A stretch of DNA of 64,000 bases from Dehalococcoidia bacterium (GCA_965197545.1 CBDANJ010000005.1:3311-67310); one strand, 5' to 3'; positions 705-33,321 are shown, numbered from the stretch's first letter. Notes: generated from the letters alone by a model not told the origin. A program made the numbers and translations.

Positions 705-1415
705 ATGAGTTCTCAAATAGCCGTTGTCCTTATACTCGCGCTCTTTGGGTTTGGGCAGGAAAGCCGCCCGGAACTCCTGTTGTGGCAAGACGGAACCAGC
801 CACAGCGATTCCTTCTACATCGATGGCCACCAAATGCGATCGATCGAACACGACGGAACCACCATCAGCACGTTCCTGCTCCGACACCACTGGGAAGCAT
901 TCTCGGATAGCTGGCACGTCCGCATCATGGTTCGAAACAACACCGATAGGCGGCTGGAACTAGACCCAGCCACGATCCGGCTCATCGACACGGAAAAATC
1001 GCAGTATGTCCGTCAGGAGAGCCCGGCAGAGCTTGTAGACAAGTACGCGGACGCGTCCATAATCCAATCCGAATTAGAGAGCAACAGGAGAACATCAGAG
1101 TCCAACAAACGCCGAGCCCAGACGCCTTGCCCGCCACTTATCGGTGCGCCGGGAGCCATAGCGGCGATCCAGAGGCTCTGCGAAGACCAGAGACGCCCCA
1201 ACAGAATCCCTTATCCAACCACCTCCGAGTCCGACCTCCACGCGGCCCAAAACCTCGCTGCGTGGATCCAGGAAACTTCGCTGGAACGAACCACGCTGTT
1301 TCCAGGCAAGACGATAGAACGCTCAGTTTGGTATCGACACGACGGAACGTCGTTGTTGCTCCAGGTTCCCGTCTTCGACCGCGTATTTGAATTTCCGTTC
1401 CCAGCACAAGAGTAG
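705..1415 (+). CDS. hypothetical exported protein
   Basis: ORF track. AAGGAG RBS 8 nt upstream. N-terminal hydrophobic segment MSSQIAVVLILALFGFG. Confidence 0.5.
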   Translation: MSSQIAVVLILALFGFGQESRPELLLWQDGTSHSDSFYIDGHQMRSIEHDGTTISTFLLRHHWEAFSDSWHVRIMVRNNTDRRLELDPATIRLIDTEKSQYVRQESPAELVDKYADASIIQSELESNRRTSESNKRRAQTPCPPLIGAPGAIAAIQRLCEDQRRPNRIPYPTTSESDLHAAQNLAAWIQETSLERTTLFPGKTIERSVWYRHDGTSLLLQVPVFDRVFEFPFPAQE

Positions 1416-1575
1416 CCGGGAGCGCCAGACGTGGTTTGTCAACCTATCGATAGAAGCCCCAAACTGAAGGCCCAAGACCGAGCCTGAAACTTCGCCGCGC
1501 TGAGGAATTCATGGAACACCTTGTCTCAGGCGCGTCAGCGGCGCCGATCCGAGCCTTCCCGCAGGGATAAATACC

Positions 1576-1617
1576 GACGATAGCGACCCCCCACTTTTGA
1601 GGGGGGTCGCTATCGTC
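1576..1617. repeat. 17-bp GC-rich inverted repeat (copy 1), terminator-like or possible transfer-origin IR
   Basis: GACGATAGCGACCCCCC / 8-nt loop / GGGGGGTCGCTATCGTC. Preceded by CTTCCCGCAGGGATAAATACCG, which recurs at 11631-11652. T-rich tract follows on the + strand. Confidence 0.6.
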
Positions 1618-1703: not shown

Positions 1704-1782
1704 TTGGAACACCTTCGTCCCAAATCTTGGAACACCCCCCCCTTTGTCCCTGTTCCAAAAAATAAGCGGTCATTTGTGGCAA
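1704..1782. promoter_or_regulatory. four-site array around conserved C8-TTTGTCCC core (copy 1)
   Basis: TTGGAACA at 1704 and 1727; core CCCCCCCCTTTGTCCC at 1735-1750; TGTTCCAA at 1751; TGTGGCAA at 1775. The inner pair forms an 8-bp stem. Confidence 0.6.
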
Positions 1783-1863: not shown

Positions 1864-2856
1864 TCATACCGGGACCGCAAACCGGGTTGCCAGGTACGTC
1901 GAACACTCGTCAATCTTAACCCCTTCCGCTAGGTTAGCCTCCGGGAGTTTTTCAAGCTCGAACCACCGCTCCCTGGCCGGGTGCCACCGTCCCCACTGCC
2001 CCAAAAACTCGTGATCGCACCGCAGCATCCCATCTTTGATCGCCGCGATCTCCTGCTTCACCGACATGCCGGTTCCATCCTTCTCCGGTGCCGCCGCCCA
2101 TGCCCTTAGCACCCGATCCGCCCGCTCAATAGGTTCGTGTTCGGCGGCAACGGCAACCACTCGGACCTGTCGCCCCTTGGCGCGGATCGCATCCCAAAGC
2201 GGAACATGCGCGGCTCCCCATGTGTTGAGTTCGCCGGTGCTCTCCCGGCCTGGATCGACATAGGCAAAGGTGACAGTTTCAGCGGCCCCGGCGATGGGGA
2301 GCTTGAGCGTAAAGTAGCGATTCTTCGCGCCATCGTCTCCATAGTAAATCCGGCGGGGAACCAAGCGGGAAGAAATGCCGAGCCCTTCAAAAAAATCGAC
2401 CTTCTCCGGTTCGGTGGGAAGCCAGTTCGACCCCGGATGTTCCAGGACAAAATCAAGCGATAGGAGCCGCCGCATCAGAACAGAGTTCCGGGCCTTCCGC
2501 CGATGCCGGATATTCTCGACACCGAGCGCCCGGTAGATCGCCATGTTCGAAATCCGGCACAATCGAGCGCCACCGGGAAACATCATCGAATCCCCTTCGA
2601 TGCCCGCCCGCCGCGCCACCAATGCCCTGACAACCCGGAGAGCCTGTTTTCGATCCGTGTTGAAGTAGTGACAAAATTGAGGCCGGATAAAAACCCCGCT
2701 ATGGAGACAGACAAGCGCGATCCATTCCGCCTCCCGTCCCGTCCAGCCAAGCGGTTCCAGTGCTCTCTCTCGCCCGCGCAAGTGCTCGATCATGGCTCGC
2801 CCAATGGTCCCCTTTCCCCTCGCCTTCGATTCTGCCAGATCGGTCCTCGCCGTCAA
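1864..2856 (-). CDS. family-X protein (330 aa); possible winged-helix replication-relaxation-like protein
   Basis: ORF track. Paralog of 11938..12957, nearly identical over about the first 165 aa. The N-terminal pattern LGWTGREAEWIALVCLHSGVF..RALVARR resembles wHTH Replic_Relax-type proteins; this is recalled from memory, not searched. Confidence 0.55.
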   Translation of the reverse strand: MTARTDLAESKARGKGTIGRAMIEHLRGRERALEPLGWTGREAEWIALVCLHSGVFIRPQFCHYFNTDRKQALRVVRALVARRAGIEGDSMMFPGGARLCRISNMAIYRALGVENIRHRRKARNSVLMRRLLSLDFVLEHPGSNWLPTEPEKVDFFEGLGISSRLVPRRIYYGDDGAKNRYFTLKLPIAGAAETVTFAYVDPGRESTGELNTWGAAHVPLWDAIRAKGRQVRVVAVAAEHEPIERADRVLRAWAAAPEKDGTGMSVKQEIAAIKDGMLRCDHEFLGQWGRWHPARERWFELEKLPEANLAEGVKIDECSTYLATRFAVPV

Positions 2857-2879: not shown

Positions 2880-3197
2880 CCTGGACCGCTCCGGGCCGAT
2901 CTGAAGACCGCGCTCGCGAAGCAGTACGAAGCGGAGATGGAGCAGCAGGCCGGGCGCGCCGGCGAATTACAGGAGCAGGTGCAGCGGCTCGAAGAATCGG
3001 TCAAGGACTTGAAGCCGCAGCTCGGGCGGACCGAAGCGTCGGCCAAGGAATTTGAAGCAGCAAGTCGAGATCTTGGCAGCGAACTACAAGGAGATCGCCG
3101 AAGTATTGCGCGAGGTGTGAACGCGATCTGGAAGCAGCGGCAGGAGGCGCGGGAACGGTTGCGGGGCCCGGAGCGGGACTTTGGTCCCAGCCGTTAG
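2880..3197 (+). pseudogene. 3' remnant of a relaxase gene
   Basis: The last codons ...RGPERDFGPSR* and the about 60 nt after the stop match the 3' end and downstream region of the relaxase at 61123..62505. No 5' part is present. Confidence 0.3.
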
Positions 3198-3293
3198 GTT
3201 GGGCCTTTCTTGGAGGCGTGAGAGAGAATGGGCAGAACGGATTGGAGGGAAATAATACATGATGGTTAAGTGCCAGAAAAAATCGGAGGCAGT

Positions 3294-4410: not shown

Positions 4411-5050
4411 ATGCAGCGTCAACGCGGCGAGCTGGTTCCGATCGGTGAAGTCATCGACGACCTGGACGGGCCGGCGATCCCCTCCGCTTCGCCCCAGGCC
4501 CGGCACCACTTCACCCAGGCTGATCAAGTGAACCTGCTTGTTTCAGCCCGCGAAACGGACCCCGATCTCGGCTTCATGGCGCGTCTGATGGCGCTGTGCT
4601 CGTTGCCCCGCACCAACCCCGGCAACCGGAGCAAGTATGTCCGACGCAACGGACCCTACACCTTGGTCATGAACGCGGGCGGTCTTCACAAGCTCCCCTT
4701 TGGCAACCTGCCGCGCCTTTTGCTGGCTTGGGTGTGCACCGAAGCGGTGCGGACCCAAAGCCGTGTTCTCGTTCTAGGGAAGTCGCTTTCCGAGTTCATG
4801 CGGGCGCTGGGCATGGAGCCAGTTGGCGGTGGTGCTACGGGCGCTCGAACCCGGCTCCGCAACCAAATGACACGGCTCTTTAACGCCAGTGTCCGGTTGG
4901 TCTACAAGGATAAGCAAGGGGAACAGTTCATTGCCTCACACATAGCCGACCGGGGTGAGTTTTGGTGGGACCCAAAGCGCCCCAACGAGCGGATGCTGTG
5001 GGACAGCAAGATCGAACTCGGCGAAAAGTTCTTCAACGAGATCATCCGCC
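4411..5050 (+). pseudogene. repA: RepA_C-type replication initiator, 3'-truncated at a MITE
   Basis: Collinear with the RepA genes at 33322 and 59101 (FMARLMALCSLPRTNPG, FGNLPRLLLAWVCTEAVRTQSR) up to ..FFNEIIRR. From there the ORF reads into the MITE at 5051. Confidence 0.8.
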
Positions 5051-5180
5051 GGTACTGTCAAGTTAACCGATTCGTTGTCTAATCAGCGCCTCGTCCACTC
5101 CCTAAGTTGTTGATTCTACATTCGACCGCCGACCGTTTCCGCCTCCAAAACCCGAGAATTCCACTTAACTTGACAGTGCC
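5051..5180. mobile_element. 130-bp MITE with IS6-like termini (copy A)
   Basis: Termini GGTACTGTCAAGTTAA ... TTAACTTGACAGTGCC. The reverse complement is about 95 percent identical to 40813..40942. Confidence 0.75.
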
Positions 5181-5734
5181 GCCATAAGCACTGGAACCAT
5201 TAGCAAGGTGGAGATGTCCCTATCCGAGTTCGGTCCATTCTCTCCAGAGGTCGAAGCGCCCTATTGGATATGCGGAGACAAGGGCAATAAATGTTCTAAT
5301 GGCGGTATTAAGTTTGAACCAGGGAAGTATGTTCTGACCGCTACACCCTATACGGATAGTGGCGAAGAGGGGCAGAAGAACACCCTTAGATTCTCAGTTT
5401 CGCAATGAGAGACGACTCAACATCGCTGATCCCGGAGGCCTGAGCGGGAGTTCTGCCTTTCCTGGTGAGTCGGGTATTGTAGTGGACCAGCACCATTGGG
5501 GTCACCTCACGAAACGGAAAAAATCGTACGCTCAGGCCGATTGAGCGGCGGTAGGGGTCGCAAGTTGCGCTGTTCGACTTGCTTGTTCTGCCGCCAGGTT
5601 GATGTGCTCCCAGCCCAGTGGCGTCAGCTCGGAGCCGCCTAATTCCTTGTCGTCGGTGGCATGAGGGGCGCGGGAATGGCCCACTCCGCATCCGGCAGGT
5701 CAAAGGTATGGGGAGGTTGTCGTTGGATACGATC

Positions 5735-6815: not shown

Positions 6816-7895
6816 CTAAGTTAGACCTGGGACCATTTGAAGTCCACTCCATGGTATAGAACTCTGGGCCTGGGACCTGGGTAATCTGGCCTCCGGCGCC
6901 GGCGGCCGATAGGCCAAGGCGCTGTGAGGCCGTCGCTGGTTGTACTCCCTGCGCCATCTCTCGGCCAACACCTTCGCCTCCCACAACGTGTCGAAGACTT
7001 CTACGTTCAGCAGTTCATCCCGCAGTTTTCCGTTGAAGCTCTCCACATATCCATTCTCCCAGGGGCTGCCGGGCTCGATGTATAAGGTCCTCACCCCAAC
7101 AGCCTTCAGCCAGTCCCGAACCGCCTGAGCCGTAAACTCCGACCCGTTATCGGACCGAATGTATTCAGGCACTCCCCGATCCACGAACAGCTCCGCCAAT
7201 CGATCCAACACGTCCTGGTGATTCATCTGTCGTTGAACCTCAATGGCCAGACACTCCCGGGTGTATTCATCCAGTAGGGTTAATAATCGAAAGGCCCTTC
7301 CGTCATGGGTTCGCTCATGCACGAAGTCATAGCTCCAGACGTGATCCTTGTGAGCCGCTCGTAACCGAACGCAGGATCCATCATGAAGCCACAGTCTCCT
7401 TCGTTTCGGCTGTCTGGACGGGACCTTCAACCCTTCTCGCCCCCACAACCTCTCCACCCGCTTGTGATTCACTTTCCACCCTTCCCAACGAAGCATGGCC
7501 GTGATCCGTCGGTAGCCGTATCGCCCGTAGTGCGTGGCCAACTCCACCATCTCAGCCACCAATCGAGCCTCATCATCGGGGATATGCCTTTCCCTTCGCT
7601 GGGTCGATCGAGCCTGTCCCAGCACTTGGCAAGCCCGACGTTCGGAGACGCGCTCTGCTCCCAATCTCTCCCTCACCCACACCACTGCGCGTCTCCTCTT
7701 CGTCGGGCCTAGAAGTTTCCCGAGGAAACTTCCTTTAGAATCTGCTTGTCCAAAGACAGATCTGCCACTAGCTTCTTCAACCGGGCATTCTCCTTCTCCA
7801 ACACCTTCAACCGCTTGGCCTGATTCAGTCGAAGCCCTCCGTACTCCTTGCGCCACCGGTAGTAGGTCTGCTCGGTCACCCCAATCTGTTTGCAC
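6816..7895 (-). CDS. IS3 OrfB (DDE integrase part; made as an OrfAB fusion)
   Basis: Shows rve-type motifs (HSDNGSEF-like [26 protein letters not shown]). Lies in the -1 frame relative to orfA. Confidence 0.85.
7644..7721 (-). promoter_or_regulatory. programmed -1 ribosomal frameshift signal of the IS3
   Basis: Slippery heptamer G_GGA_AAC in the orfA zero frame (rc of 7715-7721), 6 nt before the orfA stop. The 10-bp stem GGAGACGCGC/GCGCGTCTCC (7644-7653 / 7687-7696) lies 18 nt downstream. The -1 reading gives the OrfB sequence [11 protein letters not shown]. Confidence 0.7.
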
Positions 7896-7987: not shown

Positions 7988-8054
7988 CCTTGCCTCCTTC
8001 CTAAAACCGAAAATCCTAACATTCAACTTGGACCCGTTTTAGGGGGCAAGGTCA

Positions 8055-8364
8055 CCAGCAACAGGCGGGAGAGATTCCCGAAGGGCAGTCCGGTTTGACC
8101 CACGGCCGTCATGATCAGGGTGTAGGGGCCGTTGACGCGCCTGTATTGAAGCTGACGGCCCGGGTTGGTGCGGGGCAGGGAACACAGCATCATCAACCGC
8201 GCCATGAACCCCGTGTAGGGAGTTGCTTCACTGGCTCTAACCAAAAGGTCCACCTGATCGAAACGGGTGAAGTGGTCAACGCCTGGGGAGAATAGTCTCG
8301 GAGCGCCTTCACGGGTTCCTCCCGGCCCGGGAAGATTCCCCCGTCGGTTCTGTAGCTTCTGGAC
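8055..8364 (-). pseudogene. repA: repA 5' fragment, cut by the IS3
   Basis: ..FTRFDQVDLLVRASEATPYTGFMARLMMLCSLPRTNPG..LPFGNLSRLLL is collinear with RepA residues about 30-125. Ends at the IS3 IR. Confidence 0.7.
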
Positions 8365-9261
8365 GTGGCCAGACCGGCTGAATAACCCAGCGGTTCTCCG
8401 CAGCTTCATAGCCCTTGACGAACAGAGCCTCTTCCACGAGACGCCGCCCCTCACGCCGCGTCATGTGGATCACCAGGGCGATCCCGTCCACCACCCCCCT
8501 ACAGGTGACTTCCCAGGGAAGCTCCCCGCCGCCCTGCATGGCGCAACTGGCGATCCGGGATAAGGCGCTTTCGGCGTTGTTGGTGTGTACGGTCGTGAGC
8601 GACCCGCCGTGTCCGGTGTTAAGGGCTTGCAGCAGGTCCGCCGCCTCCCCGCCGCGAACCTCGCCCACGACGATGTGATCCGGTCGGTGGCGAAGCACAT
8701 GGCGCACGAGATCCCGGATCGTCACCGCTCCCTCCTGTAGCCCTCGACCCTCGAAGCGGACGCAATTCGACCGCTCGATGCGAAGCTCCAGCGTGTCCTC
8801 GATGGCGACTATCCGCTCGCTGTCGGGGAGAAGTTCGATGAGGGCATTGAGCAGCGTGGTCTTGCCCGATCCGGTTCCGCCTGAAACCAGGATGTTACGC
8901 CGCGAGCGCAACATTCGCTCGGCTTCCTGCCGCACGTTTTTGGGGAGCGCTCCTTGCGCCACAAGATCATCCGCCGAGAACGCCCGCTTTCCAAACCGCC
9001 GGACAGTGATTGCCGCCGTGGGGCTCGCGGGCGGGACACAGCTGGCCACCCGCGAGCTGTCCTCCAGTCGCGCATCGACAATTGGCGAGCTTGCCGGGTC
9101 CAGGCCCAAAGGCCGTGCGCCGTCAACCGCCCGGCCCGCTCGACCCAGACATTGCCTGGACCGTTAATCATGATCTCGCTGACTTCGGCATCTTCCAAGG
9201 CGCTTTCCAATCCCGGTAGAAATGGTTTCAGGTGTTCCAGTCCGCTTGCCGCGTTGCTCAT
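8309..9261 (-). pseudogene. virB11: VirB11/TrbB-type secretion ATPase, frameshifted
   Basis: N-terminus MSNAASGLEHLKPFLPGLESALEDAEVSEIMINGPGNVWVERAGR is in one frame. The Walker A VSGGTGSGKTTLLNAL and the rest are in another frame. The junction is near 9105-9112. The ATG overlaps the traG stop (ATGA). Confidence 0.75.
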
Positions 9262-11579
9262 ATCTCTCCGGCCTCCTTTGCTCTCCAATAAGAATGATCC
9301 AGGGGAAGGTAATGAGGTTTGAGATAAACCCTCCGGGGTTCCAGCGATTGCGCTCCGTCATAGGGCAAGCAAATGGCTTGACAGTTTCCAAGCAAGGTGA
9401 AGTCTCGCGGGTGAAAGACGGCCTCCCGGCGCTCCTGGAAAGACTTGGTTGCGCCGATGCTTCCGCCCGATCCACCGGCTCGGCCCGATAGCGGGGACAC
9501 GCCCGCCCGCTTCGAGGTCTCGCTGATCGTGTACGATCCTTTGATCTTGGCAACCTGCCCGCACAATTCCGATGCGATCTTGGCGGATGCGTCGTCGCTC
9601 AAGGATAGAAAGATCCGGGTGCGGAGTGTCTGCAAGAGCGCCCGCCACGCCTCCGAACTGCCCAGCACGGCCCGCAATGAGGATATGGATTGGGTCGCAA
9701 CAATCGGGATGCACCGGCATTGCCGCGTTAAGGCAAAGGATTTCTCATCGCCGGTCGGATCGTCCTCACCTACCGACGCGAACGCTTGATATTCATCACA
9801 GATAAAGACGGCTGGCCGAAAGTAGTCCGTGGGGGATTCTTTCATCTGCGCCGGGCGCATAAGCAGGGCTTGAAGCCATGCGTTTTTGAGCATCACGCCG
9901 ATGGCGCGGGCCAGCGCCGGGTTGCTCCCGGCTGGCATATTCAAGGCCAGCACCTTGCCGCCCTCGATCAATTCATAGAGCGGCGGTAAGTAGCGCGGCC
10001 TGGAAGCAATGGTATCTGCGGGCCATTGCCGGGATTCCTGGGGCTTGCCGTCGCCGCTGTCCTCCCCCTGGCCCTGGGCCTGGGTCTTCGCTTTGGCCTT
10101 CTTCTCGGCCAGCATCGCGGCCCTGGCCTTCGGGCCGATGCGCTTGGGATCGTCGGACACTTCCGGCGCGGGCGGGCAAAACACCGCCGCCACGTCCGGC
10201 ATATCGAACATCGAGAGGAAGACCGAAACGCCCTCGACAATCGAGGATTTGATTTTGTTGTCCAGCTTTTGCCAGTCGTTCTCAAACCACCGCTTCACAG
10301 CGGCCACCCGCTCTCGCACATCGTCACCGGCTCCGGGCTCCCAAACAATACGGGGTTGGATCTCCAATTTCTTTAGTTTCTGCTCCAATTCCAGGCTCCA
10401 TTCGGCCCGCATTTCCTTCCCGCTTTCTCCCCGCACCGCCACCCATTGCCACTCTCCAACCTCCACCATTTTCTCGTCCCACTTCTGGAACGGAATAAAA
10501 ACCTCCCCGGTGTTTAGCTCTGCGCTCCACGCCTCGGCCTGTTTGATTTTGGCCGTGAAAAGATCCGGGTCAATCGCGCATTGATAGACCTGCTGCAATG
10601 TCACCCACTGCTCCGGTAGCACCCGGTGAAGCTCGATGATCCAGCGCACCAGATTGGTATAGGCTTGCTGCCAGAACGGTTCCTTGCCCTTTCCGAAAAG
10701 CTGATTCAAAAGGCTGGAAACGGTGTAGGCCAGCGAGTATGAATCGAGCCACCAAGCCGAGAGCGGGTTCCATTTCCAGAGGCCGCCCATTCCAAGCTCC
10801 AGGTAGTCGGCTCCCCGGCCCGCGTCGTCCAGGATCGAGCGAATGTCATGGCAAAAATCTCCCTTCACTTCGAGCATGAGCGCCGCCGCCCGCTTCTCCG
10901 GATCGTCCGCTTGCCAGCCGAGTAGTTGCTTGGCGAAGGGGTGCATGCAGGCCGAAGTTTTGCCGCTCCCCACCGCTCCGAAAATGGCAATGCCGGTGTA
11001 CAGTCCGCGCTCCGGGATGGTCAGCCATTCGGGGTTGAAAATCTCCCTGGCTTCGACCGGATGATGCACTTCACCGATGACGATTTCCGGGCCGGGCTGA
11101 TCCGGGGAAAGCGGCCAAGCGGGGAGCGCCCCAAAGGGAATTAAATCGCGCTTTCGCGCCTCAATCCAAACCTTCCAAACGGAGAGGGCAATAGATCCGG
11201 CCAGCATCACCGCCACCAGCGGAGAAAGGTAGTACCAAACCACAACGGCGCTATAAAAATTCGGGTTGTGATACTCCAAAAGATCGAGCAAAGGGACCGT
11301 CTCAAGCGCCGGAAAAGGACGCCGGACAAAGCTCCAAACGGCGAACCAAGCCCCCCCGAAAAAGAGGATCACGGTGGGGGGAATTGCCAGGAAAATCTGA
11401 CCGGCGCGGACGCCGTACCGGACCCATTCACCCACCAAAAAGGCCGCGCCGTTGAAGATTTCCCAGCCGATATAGGCCGTCACGCGGACGGGGTTTTTCC
11501 AGTTCATCGGCCCGGCCTCCCGGCGCCAAAACCGGCTCAAGGCCGTGGTCAGTGTCCGATAGTTCTTCCGCAATTCCAT
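9258..11579 (-). CDS. traG: type IV secretion coupling protein (TraG/VirD4/TraD family)
   Basis: N-terminal TM segments, Walker A GAVGSGKTS, and C-terminal VFICDEYQAFASVG..ALTRQCRCIPIVATQS. The start was chosen at MELRKNY (GGAGAA RBS) rather than the track start. Confidence 0.85.
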   Translation of the reverse strand: MELRKNYRTLTTALSRFWRREAGPMNWKNPVRVTAYIGWEIFNGAAFLVGEWVRYGVRAGQIFLAIPPTVILFFGGAWFAVWSFVRRPFPALETVPLLDLLEYHNPNFYSAVVVWYYLSPLVAVMLAGSIALSVWKVWIEARKRDLIPFGALPAWPLSPDQPGPEIVIGEVHHPVEAREIFNPEWLTIPERGLYTGIAIFGAVGSGKTSACMHPFAKQLLGWQADDPEKRAAALMLEVKGDFCHDIRSILDDAGRGADYLELGMGGLWKWNPLSAWWLDSYSLAYTVSSLLNQLFGKGKEPFWQQAYTNLVRWIIELHRVLPEQWVTLQQVYQCAIDPDLFTAKIKQAEAWSAELNTGEVFIPFQKWDEKMVEVGEWQWVAVRGESGKEMRAEWSLELEQKLKKLEIQPRIVWEPGAGDDVRERVAAVKRWFENDWQKLDNKIKSSIVEGVSVFLSMFDMPDVAAVFCPPAPEVSDDPKRIGPKARAAMLAEKKAKAKTQAQGQGEDSGDGKPQESRQWPADTIASRPRYLPPLYELIEGGKVLALNMPAGSNPALARAIGVMLKNAWLQALLMRPAQMKESPTDYFRPAVFICDEYQAFASVGEDDPTGDEKSFALTRQCRCIPIVATQSISSLRAVLGSSEAWRALLQTLRTRIFLSLSDDASAKIASELCGQVAKIKGSYTISETSKRAGVSPLSGRAGGSGGSIGATKSFQERREAVFHPRDFTLLGNCQAICLPYDGAQSLEPRRVYLKPHYLPLDHSYWRAKEAGEI

Positions 11580-11652
11580 AGGCCCATTCTCCGCTTGATC
11601 TGCGCCGCCGTGAGGCGTCTTTTCCGAGCCTTCCCGCAGGGATAAATACCGG

Positions 11653-11747
11653 CGATAGCGACCCCCTGGGGCCGGTGTAAGGGCCTGTCCCACAGGGCAG
11701 CTACACGGGGCCAGTAGGAACCCCCGTTTCGGGGGGGGTCGCTATCG
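11653..11747. repeat. same GC-rich inverted repeat as 1576..1617, with about 67 nt inserted in the loop (copy 2)
   Basis: Arms CGATAGCGACCCCC (11653-11666) and GGGGGTCGCTATCG (11734-11747). Same upstream flank CTTCCCGCAGGGATAAATACCG. Confidence 0.6.
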
Positions 11748-11835
11748 TCTCCCCGAATTTTTCTGTATCAGCACGCGGGAAGCCGATTAGTAGGGACAAA
11801 CCACAGAAAACAAAAGAGTTCAAGGAAAGTTGGGT

Positions 11836-11912
11836 TGTCCCGCCCCCACGCTTTTTTATGCCCCACCCCCCCCTTTGTCCCTGGGGCAAAAAATAAGCGG
11901 TCCTTTGGGGCA
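11836..11912. promoter_or_regulatory. four-site array around the C8-TTTGTCCC core (copy 2)
   Basis: TGTCCCG at 11836; TGCCCCA at 11859; core CCCCCCCCTTTGTCCC at 11866-11881; TGGGGCA at 11882 and 11906. Confidence 0.6.
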
Positions 11913-11937: not shown

Positions 11938-12957
11938 TCAAACCGGCTCCGAAAACCGGGTTGCCCGAAACGTCGAATAGCCGTCAATCGAGACCCCTTT
12001 CGTAAGCTCCGCTTCGGGAAGTGTCATGAGTTCCTTGTACCGCTCCACCGCGCCTTGCATCCCTCCGTACTGGCTCATAAATTCCTCGTCGTCGCTGTGA
12101 AGTGCCTCTCTAATCGCGTTAATCTCCTGCTTCACCGTCACCCCTTCGATCACCTTTCCCGGCTCCGCCGCCGCCCAAAGCTGTAGCATCCGATCCGCCC
12201 GCAAAACCGCATCCAGTTCCGCGCCGATGGCGATCACTTCCACCCGCCGCCCCTTGGCGCGGATCGCATCCCAAAGCGGTCCATGCGCCGCTCCCCATGA
12301 GTTGAGTTCGCCGGTGCTCTCCCGGCCCGGATCGACATAAGCGACGGTGACAGTTTGAGCGCCACCGGCAACAGGCAGCTTGAGCGCAAAGTAGCGATTC
12401 TTCGCGCCATCGTATCCGTAGTAAATCCGGCGGGGAACCAAGCGGGAAGAAATGCCGAGCCCTTCAAAAAAATCGACCTTCTCCGCCTCGGTGGGAAGCC
12501 AGTTCAACCCCGGATGTTCCAGGACAAAATCAAGCGACAGGAGCCGCCGCATCAGAACAGAGTTCCGGGCCTTCCGCCGATGCCGGGTATTCTCGACACC
12601 GAGCGCCCGGTAGATCGCCATGTTCGAAATCCGGCACAATCGAGCGCCACCGGGAAACATCATCGAATCCCCTTCGATGCCCGCCCGCCGCGCCACCAAT
12701 GCCCTGACAACCCGGAGAGCCTGTTTTCGATCCGTGTTGAAGTAGTGACAAAATTGAGGCCGGATAAAAACCCCGCTATGGAGACAGACAAGCGCGATCC
12801 ATTCCGCCTCCCGTCCCGTCCAGCCAAGCGGTTCCAGCGCTCTCTCTCGCCCGCGCAAGTGCTCGATCATGGCTCGCCCAATGGTCCCCTTTCCCCTCGC
12901 CTTCGATTCTGCCAGATCGGTCCTCGCCGTCAAGGGTCCGCCGGGGCTCGCTTCCAC
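11938..12957 (-). CDS. family-X protein (339 aa), directly upstream of traG
   Basis: ORF track. Paralog of 1864..2856. The C-terminal third is divergent. Confidence 0.55.
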   Translation of the reverse strand: MEASPGGPLTARTDLAESKARGKGTIGRAMIEHLRGRERALEPLGWTGREAEWIALVCLHSGVFIRPQFCHYFNTDRKQALRVVRALVARRAGIEGDSMMFPGGARLCRISNMAIYRALGVENTRHRRKARNSVLMRRLLSLDFVLEHPGLNWLPTEAEKVDFFEGLGISSRLVPRRIYYGYDGAKNRYFALKLPVAGGAQTVTVAYVDPGRESTGELNSWGAAHGPLWDAIRAKGRRVEVIAIGAELDAVLRADRMLQLWAAAEPGKVIEGVTVKQEINAIREALHSDDEEFMSQYGGMQGAVERYKELMTLPEAELTKGVSIDGYSTFRATRFSEPV

Positions 12958-13083
12958 TCATCGACATAAGCCCGCAGCACGGGCACGCATTTCGTTCCAG
13001 GACAGGTGAATAGCCTAAAGGCCTTCCATGTCGAACATGTCGAAATAATCCTCGGACTGCCGTAGCCGGTGATGGCGGCTATA

Positions 13084-13104
13084 GTGTAACATTAAATGTT
13101 ACAC
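13084..13104. promoter_or_regulatory. 21-bp perfect palindrome, likely HigA operator
   Basis: GTGTAACATTAAATGTTACAC ends 8 nt before the higB start codon (13113). Confidence 0.5.
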
Positions 13105-13112
13105 TTCCTTTT

Positions 13113-13719: not shown

Positions 13720-14940
13720 AGCTCAACCGGTCGATGCAACACAAGCGTTAAATCGTTCTGCCGGAGTTTCAAACTCCAGCGTCTGACGGGGCCGTTCGTT
13801 CAGCTGACGTGCCACCTTGTTCAGATGCGCCTGAGAGTGCATCGACAAGTCCGTTCCCTTGGGGAAGTACTGTCGGAGTAGACCGTTGGTGTTCTCATTC
13901 GAACCGCGCTGCCATGGACTCTGAGGATCGCAGAAGTATACATCAATGTCGGCCGCCAACGTGAACCGTCGATGCTCGGCAAGCTCCAGGCCTCGATCCC
14001 AAGTCAGAGATTTGTACAGCTCCGTCGGCAGCTTCTTCGCGTGCTTGATGAGCGCCGACACGACCGTCTCCGTTTTCTTGCTGGATACTTTCGTAAGCAT
14101 CACGTAGCGCGTATGACGTTCGACCAGAGTCGCAATGTGGCTGTTCTTCGATCCGGACAGCAGATCGCCTTCCCAATGACCGGGCACGGCACGATCTTCG
14201 ACCGAGGCCGGGCGCTCACGGATCGATACGATGCCGGTGATCTGTCCTCGTCCATGGCCTCTCAGACTTGCATGCCGGGATCGACGAATCGTCCGCTTTG
14301 ACCGTAGATGCTGCATCAGCTCTGCCTTCAGCGCACCACGGGCTTGAACAAACAGGCTGCGGTAGATGGTCTCGTGAGACACGTGATAGGACGGATCCTT
14401 CGGATAGGCTCGTTTCAGCCAGCTGGCGATCTGCTCAGGCGACCAGTTTATGCTGAGCTTTCTGGCCACTACCCGTCGTAGTGGTGGATGCTTGACCAGC
14501 TGACACCGCTTCGGACGGCGGGCCCTCTCCCAGGCTCGCTCATCGGCCTCCGCTGCTCGATAGTCATCATCGCCGCCATTCCGGCGAATCTCCCGGCTCA
14601 CCGTCGATGGTGAGCGACCCATCAACCCGGCGATGGATCGTATCGATTGATGTGCCGCAATGCCTCGAGAGATCTCTTCGCGCTCCGACAACGTCAGTGC
14701 CAAACATGAACGGCGTGGTGGCCGAGGACGGATGCCTCCGTACAAAGCAAGCTGACGGTAAACAGACGATGGCTGCTTACCAAACACTCGTCCAATCGAC
14801 TTTAGCGACTCCCCTCGTTTCCACCGGTCCCACACCTCCTCCAGTTCCGCCAGCGTGTAACCGCGACGAGCTCTTTGCTTCATCCGCATACACTCCACCT
14901 CCTCCTTTCAAGGCAAAGTGTTGCGTCGATGGGTTGAGAC
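13720..14940 (-). mobile_element. IS30-family insertion sequence
   Basis: Imperfect IRs: CTCAACCGGTCGATGCAACAC at 13722, matched by the rc of 14918-14938, CTCAACCCATCGACGCAACAC. Carries a single transposase. Confidence 0.8.
13723..14883 (-). CDS. IS30-family transposase
   Basis: HTH plus DDE region (GHWEGDLL, TLTWDRGLELA-like SLTWDRGLELAEH, RGSNENTNGLLRQYFPKG). Confidence 0.9.
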   Translation of the reverse strand: MKQRARRGYTLAELEEVWDRWKRGESLKSIGRVFGKQPSSVYRQLALYGGIRPRPPRRSCLALTLSEREEISRGIAAHQSIRSIAGLMGRSPSTVSREIRRNGGDDDYRAAEADERAWERARRPKRCQLVKHPPLRRVVARKLSINWSPEQIASWLKRAYPKDPSYHVSHETIYRSLFVQARGALKAELMQHLRSKRTIRRSRHASLRGHGRGQITGIVSIRERPASVEDRAVPGHWEGDLLSGSKNSHIATLVERHTRYVMLTKVSSKKTETVVSALIKHAKKLPTELYKSLTWDRGLELAEHRRFTLAADIDVYFCDPQSPWQRGSNENTNGLLRQYFPKGTDLSMHSQAHLNKVARQLNERPRQTLEFETPAERFNACVASTG

Positions 14941-15205
14941 CACCACACTTATCGTGCTGTAGATGGAAGCATCTGAGGGCTTCGGTTTTTCTGGTCTTTC
15001 CAGAGAGCGCGCCAACGCGTCCTCTGTGGTCTTGGTGGGGGGGCGCTATGCCAGTATCCTCGAAACTCATAAAGATTTACTCGGACATATCAATCTGCTC
15101 TGATAAATGCAGCGGTGTTAGGAATGAACCGGAAAACGGAGTAATCGGTCGAGGCTTCTACTGCCCATATGATCCAAACGGTGTCTCTTTGATGATGATC
15201 AGTAA

Positions 15206-15317
15206 GATCAAAATCGCCTGGCCGAAGCTGAACTACGCAACGGCCAAGGGGGTGCTGATCCTCTCGCCTTCGACACCGGCCATCGCGCCTCTCAATTCAG
15301 GCCAGCTAACAAGCTAA
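15206..15317 (+). pseudogene. repA: repA 3' fragment
   Basis: ..ISKIKIAWPKLNYATAKGVLILSPSTPAIAPLNSGQL* matches the RepA C-terminus. Followed by an oriV skeleton. Confidence 0.65.
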
Positions 15318-15413: not shown

Positions 15414-15542
15414 ATTTCCCACAGGCTTGTGTGAATCCCGGGAGTTTTCCAGGAATAAACAGGTACACACTCAAGTAGTAAGACAAGTAGTAAGACAAGT
15501 AGTTAAAGAACAAGTAGTAGGAACGACGACTGTTGTGAATAA
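15414..15542 (+). other. oriV skeleton copy 1 (only a single iteron-like unit)
   Basis: ATTTCCCACA box; GGAATAAAC unit; four CAAGTAGT 12-15-nt repeats at 15472/15484/15496/15511; GACGAC; DnaA-box-like TGTGAATAA (rc TTATTCACA) at 15534-15542. Confidence 0.6.
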
Positions 15543-15619
15543 ACCAAACAGAACCCCAAACGGACCCAAACCAACCCCAACCGGCGAGAGGCTCACCCCT
15601 TTTTGAGAGTAAACTGGCA

Positions 15620-18576: not shown

Positions 18577-18689
18577 TCTGGCCAGATGATCGCTCCAGGA
18601 CCTCTTGGTGAAACCGGTGCGCTTCCCTGATAGAGGCCACGCACTACCTTCAGCCTGTCGTGAATGCCCACATGGCTTGCCCTCAAATT

Positions 18690-18756
18690 TTCAAACATCC
18701 AAACTTTCAAAAGTTTATATACTCAAACACTCGGACTTTTGGTATAATCGCAGGCA
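18690..18756 (+). promoter_or_regulatory. parA promoter/operator copy
   Basis: Extended -10 TGGTATAAT at 18740-18748, only 8 nt before the GTG start. Palindrome AAACTT-TCAA-AAGTTT. Same sequence in reverse at 28938..29010. Confidence 0.5.
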
Positions 18757-18830
18757 GTGATCATCACCGTTGCCAGCTTCAGGGGTGGGGTAGGGAAGAC
18801 GACGACCGCCGTACACCTCGCCGCGCACGG
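18757..18830 (+). pseudogene. parA: parA 5' stub
   Basis: MIITVASFRGGVGKTTTAVHLAA matches the first 23 codons of ParA at 28937 with one substitution (R9 versus K9), then diverges. Confidence 0.7.
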
Positions 18831-18909
18831 CGCAAAGAATCAGCTCGGGCTCCGTTTGTCGCCACTTGAAGATCGCCGGTCGGATTGCCTTCTTCATGAT
18901 CTCTTCAGG

Positions 18910-19440
18910 CTACCAGCTGGCGCCGGCCAAAGTTGCAACACAACCCCGAGGATCCACGGGCGGTTCAGTCCGCGGCAAAACTTTTTCGACCACGGCGGCC
19001 CCGATCGCATCGCCACACACGTTGACCGCGGTCCGGAAACGGTCCAGCAGCCAATCGATCGAGAGGATCAACCCGATATATTCCACGGGCAGGCCCACCG
19101 CATTGAGGACAATGACCATAGTGACCAGGCCAGCTTCCGGGATTCCCGCCGCCCCGATCGCTGCCATCGTTGCCGTCGCGGCCACCACGATCTGCTGCGA
19201 GAGGGCCAGCTCAAAACCGACGGCCTAGGCGATGAAGATAGACGCTACGGCCTCATAAAGGGCGGTTCCATCCATGTTGACCGTGGCTCCGAGCGGCAGA
19301 ACGAAATCGACCGACCGCTTGGACACTTTGGCGTTGGTGACTGCGCACTCCATTGTGACGGGAAGCGTCGCACTCGAGCTGGCTGTCGAGAATGCCGTCA
19401 GAAGCGCTTCCGACAGCGGTCGCGCTCAAGCAACCCCCCT
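18910..19440 (-). pseudogene. dicarboxylate/amino acid:cation symporter (DAACS, GltP/DctA-like) fragment with an in-frame TAG
   Basis: [84 protein letters not shown]. The 5' half of the gene is absent. The stop codon is at 19227-19225. Confidence 0.7.
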
Positions 19441-19713
19441 ATCTCTCCGACGTCTTCGCGGTCGCTTTCCAGCTCCTGATTGCGGGGCTCCACCGCCCTC
19501 GCGGGCTGCTCTGCGCTCGGCTCTAGCAACGTTGTGCGGCCCGATGTGCACACCAGGTTCCCGATGCTCCAGGCGCGTGGTTTCTCCTGCTTTTTCCTTT
19601 ATCAGGAAGGGGTTGATTTGGGAGTTTTTTGAGAAGGAGTTCCCTTGTCAGAGGGGTCATAGCCTTCCTCTTCGCCTGTGGTCGTCCTGTCCTGGGTTCT
19701 GTTCCGGGTCGAT

Positions 19714-21094: not shown

Positions 21095-22534
21095 ATGAGT
21101 AAAACCAAAACACTATTCACTATGGCCCTGCTGGTCCTGTTGGGATCGATGGGCGCGGCGCAAGCGCAGAACTTCGCCGAGGTCAAGCTGTTTACGACCC
21201 CGGCGGACTTCGCACGGGAGGGGGGTAAAAACGAGGCGGCTGGTAGCATCCTCCTCAATTCTTCTGCCGAAGCCGCTCTCCGGGCAGACGGTGCAATGAT
21301 CGAGCTGCATTTTTCCGTTCCCCTTGCGGCAGATATAGACACCGCAACCCAAGCCGTCGAGGCTACCCAAGTGACGGTAACAGGCGACACTGGTGCCGAA
21401 GTGACGGGGATGGCGGAGAACGAAGATAACGACGGCAATGGGACCATCATGATTAATCCCACCACCGGCGCTGGCCAAAATCTGCTCATCCAAAACGTGA
21501 AGTTGGACGTCAGCGGCGCCGATGAAGCCGTTACCGTGACTCTTAAAGTAACTGCAGGAACGGACGACTTTATACGGATTGACGGTCCCAGCTCCGCCAT
21601 GGTGATCGGCGGCATCAAGGTTGGCGTGGAAGCCGAAGTCACGACGGTTACCGTTCGAACCCGAGGCACCGGTGCTGGCGGAGTGATGGCCTCTCTGACC
21701 CTGAAGGAATCCTTCAAGGGTGCCTTCATGACGGGCAACATGGTGACAGTCGATTCCTCCGGCATCCCGGAGGGAGCCACGCTGACAGCCATGGTGACTA
21801 GTAATCTTGTAGCAAATGAGGACGCAGATCCTCCGGTTGTGGTCGACGACACGACTCCCTACGCTACAGTGAGCGCAGTGAAAGATGGATCCGCCACGGT
21901 AACGCTGGGTGGCAACGACGGTACGAACGATAGGCCGACTCCTGCCAGCGTCACGCTAGAGCTGACGTTGACAGCCAATCCGGCCGACGAGAACGCAGAG
22001 ATATCCTTCCCGCTGGCCCGGTCCAGCGTCATGGCGAAAGCCACCTTCACAGATCCAACCGGTCTGGTTAATAACTTTGAGGATGCGTTCACGGATTACG
22101 TGACTGTTTTCAATATCCGTCCGGCCCAGTGCGAGATTCTCTTTCCGGTCGTGACTGTCAGACCCGCGACACCCATGATGGGTATGTGGGATACGGCAAT
22201 CTCCGTCACCAACCCGGCGTATGAGGACGAAATGGCGTCCGGCGGTCTGACGTTCACCTTCTACCCGATGGGGGCCGACCCTGTGATGTATGAAACTGGA
22301 ATGGGCTCTCCAGGAGACGGGCTGGAGGCTGATGGAACTCTCGCCCCAGGAGGCACCTATCAGGTCTTGATAAGTCAGATTCTTAGCTCCACCGGCTGGG
22401 GAGACAGTTTCCGAGGCCACGTCCATATCCTGGCTGATTACACGAACTGCACCGGCGTGGGCTGGGTAACCGATTGGATGGGGGTCAACCAAGCCTATTC
22501 TGCGGTCGTGATCAGTTCTGATACCGGCGAGTAG
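21095..22534 (+). CDS. secreted protein of unknown function (479 aa), paralog of 25040..27421
   Basis: GGAG-type RBS. Signal peptide ..LLGSMGAAQA/QN. Shares motif blocks with the 793-aa protein (..NVKLDVSG..VTVTLKV; LKESFKGAF..GIPEGATLT). Confidence 0.7.
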   Translation: MSKTKTLFTMALLVLLGSMGAAQAQNFAEVKLFTTPADFAREGGKNEAAGSILLNSSAEAALRADGAMIELHFSVPLAADIDTATQAVEATQVTVTGDTGAEVTGMAENEDNDGNGTIMINPTTGAGQNLLIQNVKLDVSGADEAVTVTLKVTAGTDDFIRIDGPSSAMVIGGIKVGVEAEVTTVTVRTRGTGAGGVMASLTLKESFKGAFMTGNMVTVDSSGIPEGATLTAMVTSNLVANEDADPPVVVDDTTPYATVSAVKDGSATVTLGGNDGTNDRPTPASVTLELTLTANPADENAEISFPLARSSVMAKATFTDPTGLVNNFEDAFTDYVTVFNIRPAQCEILFPVVTVRPATPMMGMWDTAISVTNPAYEDEMASGGLTFTFYPMGADPVMYETGMGSPGDGLEADGTLAPGGTYQVLISQILSSTGWGDSFRGHVHILADYTNCTGVGWVTDWMGVNQAYSAVVISSDTGE

Positions 22535-22751: not shown

Positions 22752-22810
22752 CATAGGTGATACGGGTTTGTAACCATACCCAACGAGAAGCCCGCTCATT
22801 TAGAAAGGCG

Positions 22811-23941
22811 ATGTCACTTGTTTGCATCGAAGCTTCATCTTCCGGGCTCGCCGCCCTTTCCCTCATCGGGGTTATGCTTCTGTGCAATCCCCCCGCCTGG
22901 GCCAAGCCTGCTGAAACAATTCCACAAGACCTCGAGACCGTTCCGGATTTAAACCAGCTTCAGCAGGAGGTGCTGGAGTTTTGGTCGCTGGTGGTCCAGG
23001 GGAAAAAGTTTCAAGCCTTGCGCTATGTCGCGGAAGGACAAGACCACTTTCTGAACTGGAAGTGGCCTCTAGTTCGATCCTACCGGGTAACGAATCTGGA
23101 TTTGAAGAATGGATCGGACGAGGTTCTCGTCACGACAACGGCCATGGTCAGCCCTCCGGGGTTCGAGGCGGCGTTGAGTTGGCCGGTTCGGCAACGATGG
23201 GTCTTCCGGGACCAAGACTGGCGAATCCTGGTTGAAGGATCGAACCCGGCAGCCGTCTTTGGGGGGAAGAGCCGGATCCGGACAACGTCTGGGCGCGATC
23301 AGGCGGAGACCCTCAAGCAGTTCAAGCGACTCCAGATTGGGCCAAAGCGGATCCATTTCGGTGCGGTTCTCCAGGGAGAAACGATCTGGCAGGAGCTCAC
23401 CTACAAAAACGAAGGCGAGCTTGGGATCCGGGTACGAGTGATCCAGTCCCCACGCTGGGTGGCTCTTGATCGGAGCGATTTTATTGCCGGTCCAGAGGAC
23501 GAAGGGACGTGGCTTCTGGGTGTGTTTACGGAGAATCTAGAGGGCGAGGTTCAGGGGGAGCTCACTCTGGAATTGAGCCACGGCACGGTTCGTCAGGAAC
23601 AAATGGTTTCGGTTCTGGGATCGATCACACCGCCTCTGAGCCTCGCTCCAGGACGCTTGGTTCTCGTCCCGGGAATTTCCTATGAAATTCGGGTTCAAAA
23701 TCACACCCACCAAGAAGTCCGCATTGCTGAAATTGTGTCGCCGGTGGACTTTCTTGTAGCGAAGTGGTCTTCATCGGCGAGCGGCCACATCGTTCCAGAT
23801 GGCAGTGCGGCCCTGAAGGTCACATGGGACGCAGACCGTGCGCCTCAGGACTGGAGCGGGGGGATCCTGCGGCTGCTTTTGGATCAGCCCGTAGCCGGTC
23901 GGTCGGAGCTCACGGTTCCGATCCTGCGACAGTTTCCCTAA
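22811..23941 (+). CDS. secreted protein with NTF2-like N-domain and two Ig-like (DUF1573/ASH-like) domains
   Basis: Signal peptide ..CNPPAWA/KP. IHFGAVLQGETIWQELTYKNEGELGIRVRV resembles the DUF1573 F-x-F-G-x-V motif. This assignment is from memory. Confidence 0.55.
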   Translation: MSLVCIEASSSGLAALSLIGVMLLCNPPAWAKPAETIPQDLETVPDLNQLQQEVLEFWSLVVQGKKFQALRYVAEGQDHFLNWKWPLVRSYRVTNLDLKNGSDEVLVTTTAMVSPPGFEAALSWPVRQRWVFRDQDWRILVEGSNPAAVFGGKSRIRTTSGRDQAETLKQFKRLQIGPKRIHFGAVLQGETIWQELTYKNEGELGIRVRVIQSPRWVALDRSDFIAGPEDEGTWLLGVFTENLEGEVQGELTLELSHGTVRQEQMVSVLGSITPPLSLAPGRLVLVPGISYEIRVQNHTHQEVRIAEIVSPVDFLVAKWSSSASGHIVPDGSAALKVTWDADRAPQDWSGGILRLLLDQPVAGRSELTVPILRQFP

Positions 23942-28077: not shown

Positions 28078-28347
28078 TCAACTACGCGCCTTAAGCCACT
28101 TGGCAAGTAAGTCCTCGACGAGTTCACTGAACTCCTGGCCTTTGCCCTCTTGCAGCAGCGCAATTTTGACGCCCTGGTGGGTGTGCCTGCGAATGTAGGC
28201 AGTGACCTGCTCGAAGTCTGGATCGTTGCGCTTGCCAGGTGGTCTTCCCCTCCGCCGCCGTTTGGTTGACACCACCAAAGGTGCAGGCTTGACCGCTGTG
28301 TCTTCCCTGTTCTTCGCAGCGTCAATGACCCTCTGGAACTTGCTCAC
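28078..28347 (-). CDS. ParG-like ribbon-helix-helix partition protein
   Basis: GTG overlaps the parA stop (GTGA), with an AAGGAG RBS. The C-terminal EQVTAYIRRHTHQGVKIALLQEGKGQEFSELVEDLL has the RHH pattern. Confidence 0.65.
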   Translation of the reverse strand: MSKFQRVIDAAKNREDTAVKPAPLVVSTKRRRRGRPPGKRNDPDFEQVTAYIRRHTHQGVKIALLQEGKGQEFSELVEDLLAKWLKARS

Positions 28348-28937: not shown

Positions 28938-29010
28938 TGCCTGCGATTATACCAAAAGTCCGAGTGTTTGAGTATATAAACTTTTGAAAGTTTGGATGTT
29001 TGAAAAAATT
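28938..29010 (-). promoter_or_regulatory. parA promoter/operator
   Basis: The rc contains TGGTATAAT (28946-28954), 8 nt from the GTG start, so there is no room for an RBS. Same palindrome as at 18690..18756. Confidence 0.5.
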
Positions 29011-29594: not shown

Positions 29595-29615
29595 AGACCA
29601 AATTATAATGTTCTC

Positions 29616-32685: not shown

Positions 32686-32918
32686 AGTCTGCCCATTTTC
32701 CCACATCTCCAAGACAAGAACCACAAGAGAAACAAAGCTCAACCACAAAAAGGGGGGCTTTACGCCCTTGAGAAAGAACTAGCGGCTGGGGCCATAGTCT
32801 CGCTCCGGCCACGGCAGTAGCGGCCTTGGCGTGCCCCTTTTTTTCCGTTCGGCACGGGGTGGGCCGAGTAGTAGAGGATAACCACAGCGGAATGAGAGAG
32901 ATAAGGAAATATGGAGTT

Positions 32919-32994
32919 GTGACACCTTTGGGACGAATCGGGTGACACCCCCCCTCTGTCCCTGTCACATTTATCGCGCGGCCCTCAGTCACAT
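32919..32994. promoter_or_regulatory. four-site array around the C-rich core (copy 3)
   Basis: GTGACA at 32919 and 32942; core CCCCCCCTCTGTCCC at 32948-32962; TGTCAC at 32963; AGTCAC at 32987. Confidence 0.55.
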
Positions 32995-33270: not shown

Positions 33271-33321
33271 AACCGCAGATGGATATCCCTGTCTTGTCTG
33301 GGGAATATGGGAGAATAAACT

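Follow-up and report, generated by a model that had tools for sequence, protein, structure and literature searches.

An unnamed protein family of soil bacteria with a MOBC-like predicted architecture and its own candidate origin of transfer

Here we analysed a 64,000-nucleotide (nt) stretch of DNA from a Dehalococcoidia bacterium (GCA_965197545.1 CBDANJ010000005.1:3311-67310; GC ~58%), hereafter the window. The subject is a protein family, here called family X, which is represented in the window by two paralogs (copies 1 and 2) and a remnant (copy 3), together with a DNA element downstream of the gene that resembles an origin of transfer (oriT). The genes at these loci, among them one for a type IV secretion coupling protein (T4CP), are listed below with their open reading frames (ORFs), coding sequences (CDSs) and adjoining insertion sequences (IS).

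11938-12870, minus strand: family X copy 2, probable CDS of 310 amino acids (aa); the ORF reaches a GTG at 12957
1864-2793, minus strand: family X copy 1, probable CDS of 309 aa; the ORF reaches 2856; C-terminal allele B
33036-33287, minus strand: family X copy 3, a 3' remnant of the last ~85 codons, truncated beside the RepA_C gene at 33322-34296
12906-12933, minus strand: promoter-like site (TTGACG, 16 nt, TG-CAGAAT) ~35 nt 5' of the copy 2 ATG, a consensus match only
9258-11693, minus strand: T4CP (TraG-D_C, TrwB_AAD_bind); the ORF, with its start at GTG 11693, overlaps the oriT-like element
8309-9109, minus strand: VirB11/TrbB/TadA-type ATPase, seemingly shortened, with a RepA fragment and an IS after it
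32838-32954, minus strand: part of the downstream module at copy 3, with 74% identity to 1625-1741 but no inverted repeat or core

The two family X ORFs, 11938-12957 and 1864-2856 (both on the minus strand), share 81% aa identity across 331 aa. Judged from their sequences, the true CDSs are probably the shorter 11938-12870 and 1864-2793, because most homologues are 310 aa long and start with MIEHL. Homology between the two copies sets in abruptly at 12941/2864, just 5' of the promoter-like site, and extends through the non-coding module downstream of the gene. At copy 2 the order is gene, module, T4CP and shortened VirB11, as the initial annotation had it when it placed this copy immediately upstream of traG/virB11 with the module in between; neither T4CP nor VirB11 lies downstream of copy 1. 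The T4CP probably starts at ATG 11579, which has a GGAG before it, because the listed ORF overlaps the oriT-like element. The third copy, reported at 33021-33270 as diverging in a similar way, does exist and is 57% identical, but it is a mere 3' remnant. All three window copies of family X adjoin replicon genes.

The downstream modules of the two full copies contain the following parts.

11835-11867, minus strand: copy 2 direct repeats, GGTGGGGCAT at 11858-11867 and GGCGGGACAA at 11835-11844, with 23-nt spacing; a degenerate form of the family word GGTGTnnCA
11734-11747 and 11653-11666, minus strand: outer inverted repeat of the copy 2 oriT-like element, CGATAGCGACCCCC / GGGGGTCGCTATCG, with a 67-nt interior that holds an inner hairpin
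11629-11643, minus strand: copy 2 mini-hairpin core, ATCCCTGCGGGAAGG, after an 11-nt spacer; the whole element covers 11629-11747
1727-1736 and 1704-1713, minus strand: copy 1 direct repeats, GGTGTTCCAA twice, with 23-nt spacing
1554-1617, minus strand: minimal version of the oriT-like element at copy 1, in which an inverted repeat of 17 bp, GACGATAGCGACCCCCC / GGGGGGTCGCTATCGTC (1601-1617, 1576-1592), flanks an 8-nt loop
1554-1568, minus strand: copy 1 mini-hairpin core, ATCCCTGCGGGAAGG, with a 9-nt spacer before it and no T4CP downstream

The copy-specific site array that had been described beside the divergent 3' end of each gene is thus real, with one word used twice at copy 1 and two related words at copy 2. 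A 20-mer of the module occurs twice in the window against 0.00 expected, and exactly in five other loci, so the copies and their modules are not a product of chance. One of these loci, L007, encodes a protein that over residues 75-310 is just 67% identical to copy 2.

Searching with a profile of the core, we located the element at 40 loci; its distance from the stop codon is 260-330 nt in every case, and it lies on the gene strand. The core of the outer stem is invariant, AGCGAC(C)n / (G)nGTCGCT, and Watson-Crick pairing holds at each of the four positions that follow in 35-39 of the 39 distinct elements, through two to four types of pair. The interior is usually 64-69 nt long and contains two more hairpins, so that a three-way junction results; copy 1 retains just 8 nt of the interior and L062 just 4 nt. 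After a spacer of 8-12 nt comes the mini-hairpin ATCCCTNCGGGAAGG, of the form (A/G)TCC(C/T)-N3-4-(G/A)GGA-AGG, whose arms covary (TCCC/GGGA 28 times, TCCT/AGGA seven times, mismatched once). Folded as single-stranded DNA, the elements reach z-scores of -5.8 to -6.9 (copy 1, -25.5 kcal/mol, z = -6.9; copy 2, only -1.9). The direct repeats lie ~200-230 nt upstream of the core and are found in about half of the element types; they are formed by a word of 8-13 nt that is specific to the locus and occurs twice, with a constant spacing of 23 nt. In 6 of 16 loci this word recurs as a perfect 7-mer at the tip of the inner hairpin, compared with 6 of 240 cross-locus controls, and among distant loci it varies together with helix 3 of the predicted winged helix described below. 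Six of the eight close loci (copy 1, L001, L002, L005, L007 and L010) have kept the element and its invariant core without a T4CP. On sequence grounds, the element has what is expected of an oriT: an inverted repeat by a conserved core, a position beside a processing gene and covarying arms. No match to Rfam was found in the whole window, and an exact scan for the core 22-mer in JGI contigs returned none. An intrinsic terminator was also considered for the module and ruled out, as there is no T-run after the stem on the gene strand.

Several loci carry a second, orphan copy of the element in inverted orientation, often of another sequence type, for example L030 (1221-1265, plus strand, and 1374-1427, minus strand) and L034 (7190-7236, plus strand, and 10279-10328, minus strand), and also L031, L028, L060, L062, L067 and L069. 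Some orphan copies face the first copy core to core, and some enclose cargo (a 733-aa protein, with type I restriction-modification and Schlafen/AlbA_2 genes nearby). These arrangements may reflect oriT-oriT recombination or the capture of cargo at the site. The core ATCCCTGC may resemble the nick consensus of MOBP relaxases, YATCCTG/Y. Upstream of copy 2, ~150 nt 5' of its promoter, a perfect palindrome AGTGTAACAT-TAA-ATGTTACACT occupies 13083-13105, and its 9-mer is the exact direct-repeat word of L001, a locus whose protein has almost the same winged helix. This palindrome may be an operator for family X, but a single exact match of 9 nt does not reach significance alone; the GTGTAACAT palindrome 5' of copy 2, not significant taken singly, is a weak lead.

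The gene order at copy 2 is widespread. We surveyed 80 metagenomic loci encoding homologues 30-50% identical, 43 of them with at least 1.5 kb of downstream sequence. The T4CP gene directly follows family X in 27 of the 43, usually with a VirB11-type ATPase and ArdC after it, so that these loci read VirB8 - family X - element - T4CP - VirB11 - ArdC. Upstream of family X, the loci with a type IV secretion system (T4SS) contain genes for VirB4-like, TrbI/VirB10, TrbL/VirB6, VirB8 and VirB9 proteins. The linkage to T4CP, VirB11, ArdC and the downstream element persists in homologues down to 30-47% identity, which supports the proposal in the initial annotation of a DNA-processing or transfer-origin protein coupled to the T4CP. 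No relaxase Pfam family was present among 59 ORFs flanking 13 T4CP-linked loci, where only T4SS parts, ArdC, RepB primase, tyrosine integrase, AlpA and host genes were recognised. Within a close clade from Acidobacteriota, family X mostly stands alone with its downstream module beside RepA_C replicon genes. There are two genomic forms: one lies within the T4SS operons of integrative conjugative elements, and the other is a ~1.4-kb cassette of promoter, gene and putative oriT beside RepA_C replicons. Both full window copies are of the stand-alone cassette or decayed form. A relaxase gene would be expected to occur in just this way, in conjugative clusters and alone with an oriT on mobilizable replicons.

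Two further observations concern the partners of family X. Three proteins (P0133, P0148 and P0188) are fusions in which an N-terminal ArdC (ArdcN plus a zincin metallopeptidase) is joined to a C-terminal family X, which suggests a functional tie between both proteins. Among homologues, conservation of the T4CP is lowest over its first ~100 residues.

Judging by the sequences retrieved, family X is a large, unnamed family of soil bacteria. Clustered at 90% identity it comprises more than 2,944 clusters, an exhaustive search yielded 1,827 at 50%, and none of the sequence sources gives the family a name. The window copies have no Pfam match at E <= 0.01 and no NCBIfam match. Among 32 diverse members there was no match to PF13814 at E <= 1, and just a few weak MarR matches. 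A PHROGs scan returned no family, and the family X profile against PDB sequences gave only a spurious match to HIV capsid (E 1.6). The whole protein was thus not placed by Pfam, NCBIfam, PHROGs or PDB sequences in a family unrelated to DNA processing, the outcome named beforehand as counting against the initial annotation. Neither Pfam and NCBIfam nor structural searches matched the family to HUH relaxases (MOBF/P/Q/V; Relaxase, MobA_MobL, TrwC, Mob_Pre). tblastn of three diverse members against PLSDB (72,556 plasmids) found no match, no contigs encoding a 100%-identical protein were found, and a literature search found no publication describing the family. The best-conserved polar residues are Y87, R98, R109, D114, E128, E130, K131, R148 and R159, while D180 and H196 are conserved at just 77-79% (D180 in 77% of representatives).

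We modelled the family with AlphaFold2 (AF2) from 32 diverse members. The resulting model, which is confident (pLDDT 90.8, pTM 0.83), has three parts, with the following boundaries in copy 2.

Residues ~19-90: winged helix (AF2 model)
Residues ~100-235: central α/β domain (AF2 model)
Residues ~246-310: helical C-terminal third (AF2 model)

The predicted N-terminal winged helix-turn-helix (helices 19-31, 37-44 and 48-60 plus a β wing) has Foldseek matches of the MarR type. Against the PDB, the full model matched only such MarR-type winged helices, weakly (all E >= 0.06; probability up to 0.99 over 84-96 columns). Against BFVD, the top match was gp146 of phage G (E 4.6e-4, probability 1.0, 258 columns), a Replic_Relax protein (PF13814, E 4e-25) that PHROGs labels 'replication initiation by nicking'. 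The resemblance to winged-helix replication-relaxation proteins, which had been noted only by eye, thereby gains structural backing. Modelled separately, the central domain (pLDDT 94.6) has the topology α-α-β-β-β-β-α-β-α, compatible with a PD-(D/E)XK fold; its PDB matches include nothing below E 0.059, and the top of the list is mostly PD-(D/E)XK proteins (R2 endonuclease, bunyavirus cap-snatching endonucleases, R.BspD6I). Replic_Relax corresponds to the MOBC relaxases, in which a PD-(D/E)XK domain is usually fused to a helix-turn-helix (PMC3424549; PMC12857230). For TraX, one of these, binding to direct repeats at a distance of 70-120 bp from nic has been described (PMC12857230; PMC3424549). 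In its predicted structure family X looks built like a MOBC relaxase, yet by sequence and motif it is not recognised as Replic_Relax.

The two full copies differ very unevenly along their length. Codon by codon, and in the frame of the 330-aa ORF, they share 99.7% nt identity over codons 1-115 (a single synonymous difference), ~97% over codons 116-165 and ~88% over codons 166-225, matching the few differences over ~165 aa (such as ENIRHRR and ENTRHRR) noted at the outset. From codon 226 to the end, nt identity is 55-70% and aa identity 37-60%, in line with the previously reported drop to ~60%, and third positions are ~40% identical and near saturation over the last ~100 codons. The near-identical 5' 450 nt (96-100% nt identity) also occur in loci L002-L005 and L007 from metagenome-assembled genomes (MAGs) of Acidobacteriota, Terriglobia and Bryobacterales, where the 3' 300 nt are just 60-68% identical to copy 2; L010 has the reverse pattern. 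The C-terminal part exists in at least three alleles: A (copy 2, L010, L008), B (copy 1, L002, L005, L007; 94-97% identical among themselves) and C (L001). The pattern is that of recent homologous recombination inside the gene, with breakpoints at about codons 150-210, because synonymous sites are identical too, the 5' allele is common to other MAGs and L010 is reversed. It is an example of such modules being reshuffled between genomes.

This mosaic changes how the two halves of the protein are to be read. The initial annotation had taken the N-terminal half for a constant domain and the C-terminal third for a variable domain that reads its cognate sites. A selected constant domain is rejected, since the identity is at the nucleotide level and includes synonymous sites. 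A C-terminal reader of the variable repeats is not supported either: proteins with 94-97% identical C-termini and the same N-terminus go with different words, TGTTCCAA and TGTGACAA. The winged helix, the one DNA-binding fold that can be recognised, is N-terminal, and the C-terminal third is helical and has no DNA-binding match. At close range the sites therefore vary without matching variation in the protein, as loci with near-identical proteins carry one word or the other. Co-inheritance of the 3' end of the gene with the sites is expected from physical linkage alone.

With a probability of about 0.5, we propose that family X and the ~300-nt downstream element are the DNA-transfer initiation (Dtr) module of a group of conjugative and mobilizable elements in Acidobacteriota and other soil bacteria. 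A role of the protein in initiating DNA transfer at the adjacent site appears highly probable, and whether it is itself the nicking enzyme we consider evenly balanced. The analysis is best read as pointing to a MOBC-like relaxase or oriT-recognition family with its own oriT, a new family that would be relaxase-like and MOBC-like in architecture and distinct in the design of its oriT. Family size, predicted fold, synteny, the element with its covariation and the mosaic are what the data show; the mechanism that we infer covers binding, nicking, strand choice and the polarity of transfer. The winged helix would bind the direct repeats spaced by 23 nt, and also their word where it recurs in the apex of the inner hairpin, and binding would position the protein on the three-way-junction hairpin of the sense strand. 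The cut would then fall at or next to the mini-hairpin (A/G)TCC(C/T)-NNN-(G/A)GGA-AGG, 8-12 nt 3' of the outer stem, and the nucleoprotein would be passed to the T4CP encoded directly downstream, such that the T4CP-VirB11-ArdC side would enter the recipient first.

Several points weigh against this proposal. Homology to Replic_Relax is without support from sequence: in hhalign, the probability was 4.9% with TraX-like and 1.1% with gp146-like proteins. Such comparisons of profiles are of low power, because the control between the two true Replic_Relax subfamilies, TraX-like and gp146-like, also fails (0.16%). The Foldseek TM-scores are modest (0.38/0.43). The residues that are invariant in Replic_Relax, D...E-x-(D/E) in β2 and β3 (D152, E170 and E172 in TraX-like, D174, E191 and D193 in gp146-like proteins), have no clear PD...ExK/ExD counterpart in family X, where the equivalents by eye are P166-I/V, Y178/F and D180 (77%). 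Another conserved cluster, D114, E128, E130, K131 and Y87, falls in predicted helices; in the model, with equivalents aligned by eye, a shifted active site at D114, E128, E130 and K131 is possible. The T4SS loci were viewed within ±6 kb, and a canonical relaxase may sit farther out; the calling of ORFs in the flanks was also crude. A VirD2-type relaxase (PF03432) is encoded in the window itself, at 60733-62505, albeit 48 kb off and with no copy of the element near it. Finally, copies with an identical winged helix carry different repeat words, and the central dinucleotide of GGTGTnnCA has no matching protein change in the close clade, so that reading of the sites by this domain is unproven.

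Some of these points would suit a protein that binds the oriT and leaves the cutting to others. Family X could be a non-catalytic accessory protein or adaptor, a 'pseudo-nuclease' that recruits the element to the T4CP while a relaxase encoded elsewhere or by a helper element makes the nick. The canonical acidic residues of PD-(D/E)XK enzymes are not recognisable in it, a winged helix and a repeat array fit an accessory role, and relaxase sequences do occur in the form of the PF03432 gene of the window and of a VirD2-like fragment 2 kb downstream in L025. The possible likeness of the core ATCCCTGC to the MOBP nick consensus is a further point in favour. We nevertheless find this unlikely: the relaxase of the window is 48 kb off and has no element near it, the 59 flanking ORFs include no relaxase family, and the stand-alone cassettes beside replicons resemble complete minimal MOB modules. 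Accessory proteins, moreover, are mostly small ribbon-helix-helix proteins (PMC12857230), in contrast to the 310-aa, three-domain family X. Still more doubtful, in our assessment, is that the protein is a transcriptional regulator of the transfer operon and the element a structured RNA leader, attenuator or processing site for T4CP translation, with the mini-hairpin masking a GGGAAGG ribosome-binding site and the direct repeats acting as operators. GGGAAGG does lie 12-16 nt before the T4CP ATG in distant loci, where it is a possible ribosome-binding site and a further point against an oriT. The stems covary like RNA stems, G-T pairs exceed A-C pairs in the outer stem, by which the sense strand is the one that folds, and the N-terminus has no PDB matches other than MarR-type regulators. 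Yet an element with an invariant core is retained in loci where no T4CP follows, the window T4CP has its own GGAG site ~50 nt farther on, Rfam has no match, and the orphan inverted copies flank cargo genes. The full-length fold, too, matches a family of nicking proteins and not dimeric MarR, and a locus-specific word common to the repeats and the hairpin tip points to recognition of DNA by a protein.

A third alternative, a nicking replication initiator acting at a rolling-circle-type origin of plasmid-like modules, seems very improbable to us. It draws on the annotation of Replic_Relax proteins for replication besides relaxation (PMC3424549; also the PHROG label) and on the position of the three window copies, all beside replicon genes. 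These replicons, however, already own RepA_C initiators with iterons, and diverse loci embed the gene in T4SS operons of integrated elements (integrase, AlpA) and not in replicons. Extending our preferred reading, that of a MOBC-like Dtr module, a bolder version can be formulated, which we hold tentatively and at less than even odds. Family X would be an unrecognised class of relaxase, a further MOB family, with a restriction-endonuclease-derived domain, a re-modelled active site and a three-way-junction oriT that contains the specificity word in triplicate (twice as a direct repeat, once at the apex of the hairpin), and it would be the missing relaxase of many VirB-type elements in Acidobacteriota and other soil bacteria that present-day MOB typing scores as relaxase-less.

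As a whole, the window gives the impression of a cointegrate of related plasmid modules, or of their graveyard, split by IS elements. There are at least three RepA_C modules (4411-5082, 33322-34296 and 59065-60078, all plus strand) and RepA fragments at 8047-8340 (minus strand), 15189-15314 (plus strand) and 42627-42740 (minus strand). Each complete RepA_C module has three ACAAGTAGTA-type repeats ~250 nt after it, probably iterons; such repeats are listed at 15483-15580, 34540-34637 and 60305-60402. An IS30-like transposase (HTH_38 plus rve; 13723-14898, minus strand) seems to interrupt the RepA gene beside copy 2. Other mobile-element genes encode an IS3-like transposase (rve/rve_3; 6816-7895, minus strand), TnpB (OrfB_IS605/Cas12f-like; 29397-30830, plus strand), a Tn3 transposase (53545-56520, plus strand) and a tyrosine recombinase (62716-63636, minus strand). 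A repeat of ~130 nt (91-95% identity) at 5051-5181, 34685-34759 and 40812-40942, in direct and inverted orientation, lies at the edges of the truncated RepA gene and near an IS110-family transposase (34811-35776), and its copies are probably IS ends. A 61-nt repeat (85%) at 3165-3225 and 62473-62533 is found ~370 nt upstream of copy 1 in the former case and overlaps the 3' end of the VirD2-type relaxase in the latter. An inverted repeat of 137 nt (99%) at 18688-18824 and 28870-29006 surrounds ~10 kb, and its arms cover the 5' ends of ParA-like genes (18757-19479, 28344-28937). The large ORFs inside it, 21095-22534, 22757-23941 and 25040-27421, have no Pfam match, and the segment could be invertible or duplicated. 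Two Cache-domain paralogs (31696-32748 and 47018-48013, both minus strand) have 77-81% nt identity over ~1 kb and a common upstream sequence, and are unrelated cargo.

Conjugative elements are detected and typed by means of their relaxase, and T4SS clusters that have none are usually dismissed as non-conjugative or as protein-secreting. Family X, with 1,827 clusters at 50% identity and no entry in Pfam or NCBIfam, occupies the position of the relaxase in the VirB-type clusters of soil bacteria. Should the protein prove to be the relaxase or the recogniser of oriT, a large share of the Acidobacteriota mobilome would become open to MOB and oriT typing, and the 1.4-kb cassettes of gene plus element would mark mobilizable replicons. 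The sharply bounded element, with its covarying stems, fixed core and programmable words, would then also offer a ready substrate for biochemistry.

Among known systems, the oriT sites of HUH relaxases (RSF1010/R1162, RP4 and R388) resemble the element in that an inverted repeat is followed 8-12 nt on by a conserved short sequence, in the position between the gene at the relaxase position and the T4CP gene, and in having arms that covary around a fixed core. They differ in that the 'loop' of the element is usually 64-69 nt long with two further hairpins, and its core is itself a 4-bp mini-hairpin; there is also no HUH relaxase nearby. MarR/ArsR-type winged-helix regulators share the fold of residues ~19-90, and a few family members have weak MarR Pfam matches, but the E-values are weak (>= 0.06), the other two-thirds of family X have no counterpart in these regulators and the context is one of DNA transfer. 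The likeness to the MOBC/Replic_Relax proteins (PF13814; pAD1 TraX, CloDF13 MobC and gp146) lies in a winged helix at the N-terminus and, in the model, a restriction-endonuclease-like α/β domain after it; the best structural match, gp146, is a confirmed member. In family X and these proteins alike, the gene lies beside that of the T4CP, as for the TraX homologue of pTEF1, and direct repeats lie well apart from the putative nick region, as for TraX (PMC12857230). In contrast to these proteins, family X has no Pfam match, no significant profile-profile match and no recognisable D...E-x-(D/E) motif, and it carries an additional helical C-terminal domain of ~65 residues. Its hosts are diderm soil bacteria with a VirB-type T4SS, as opposed to Firmicutes or enterobacterial plasmids, and its oriT-like site is a three-way-junction hairpin.

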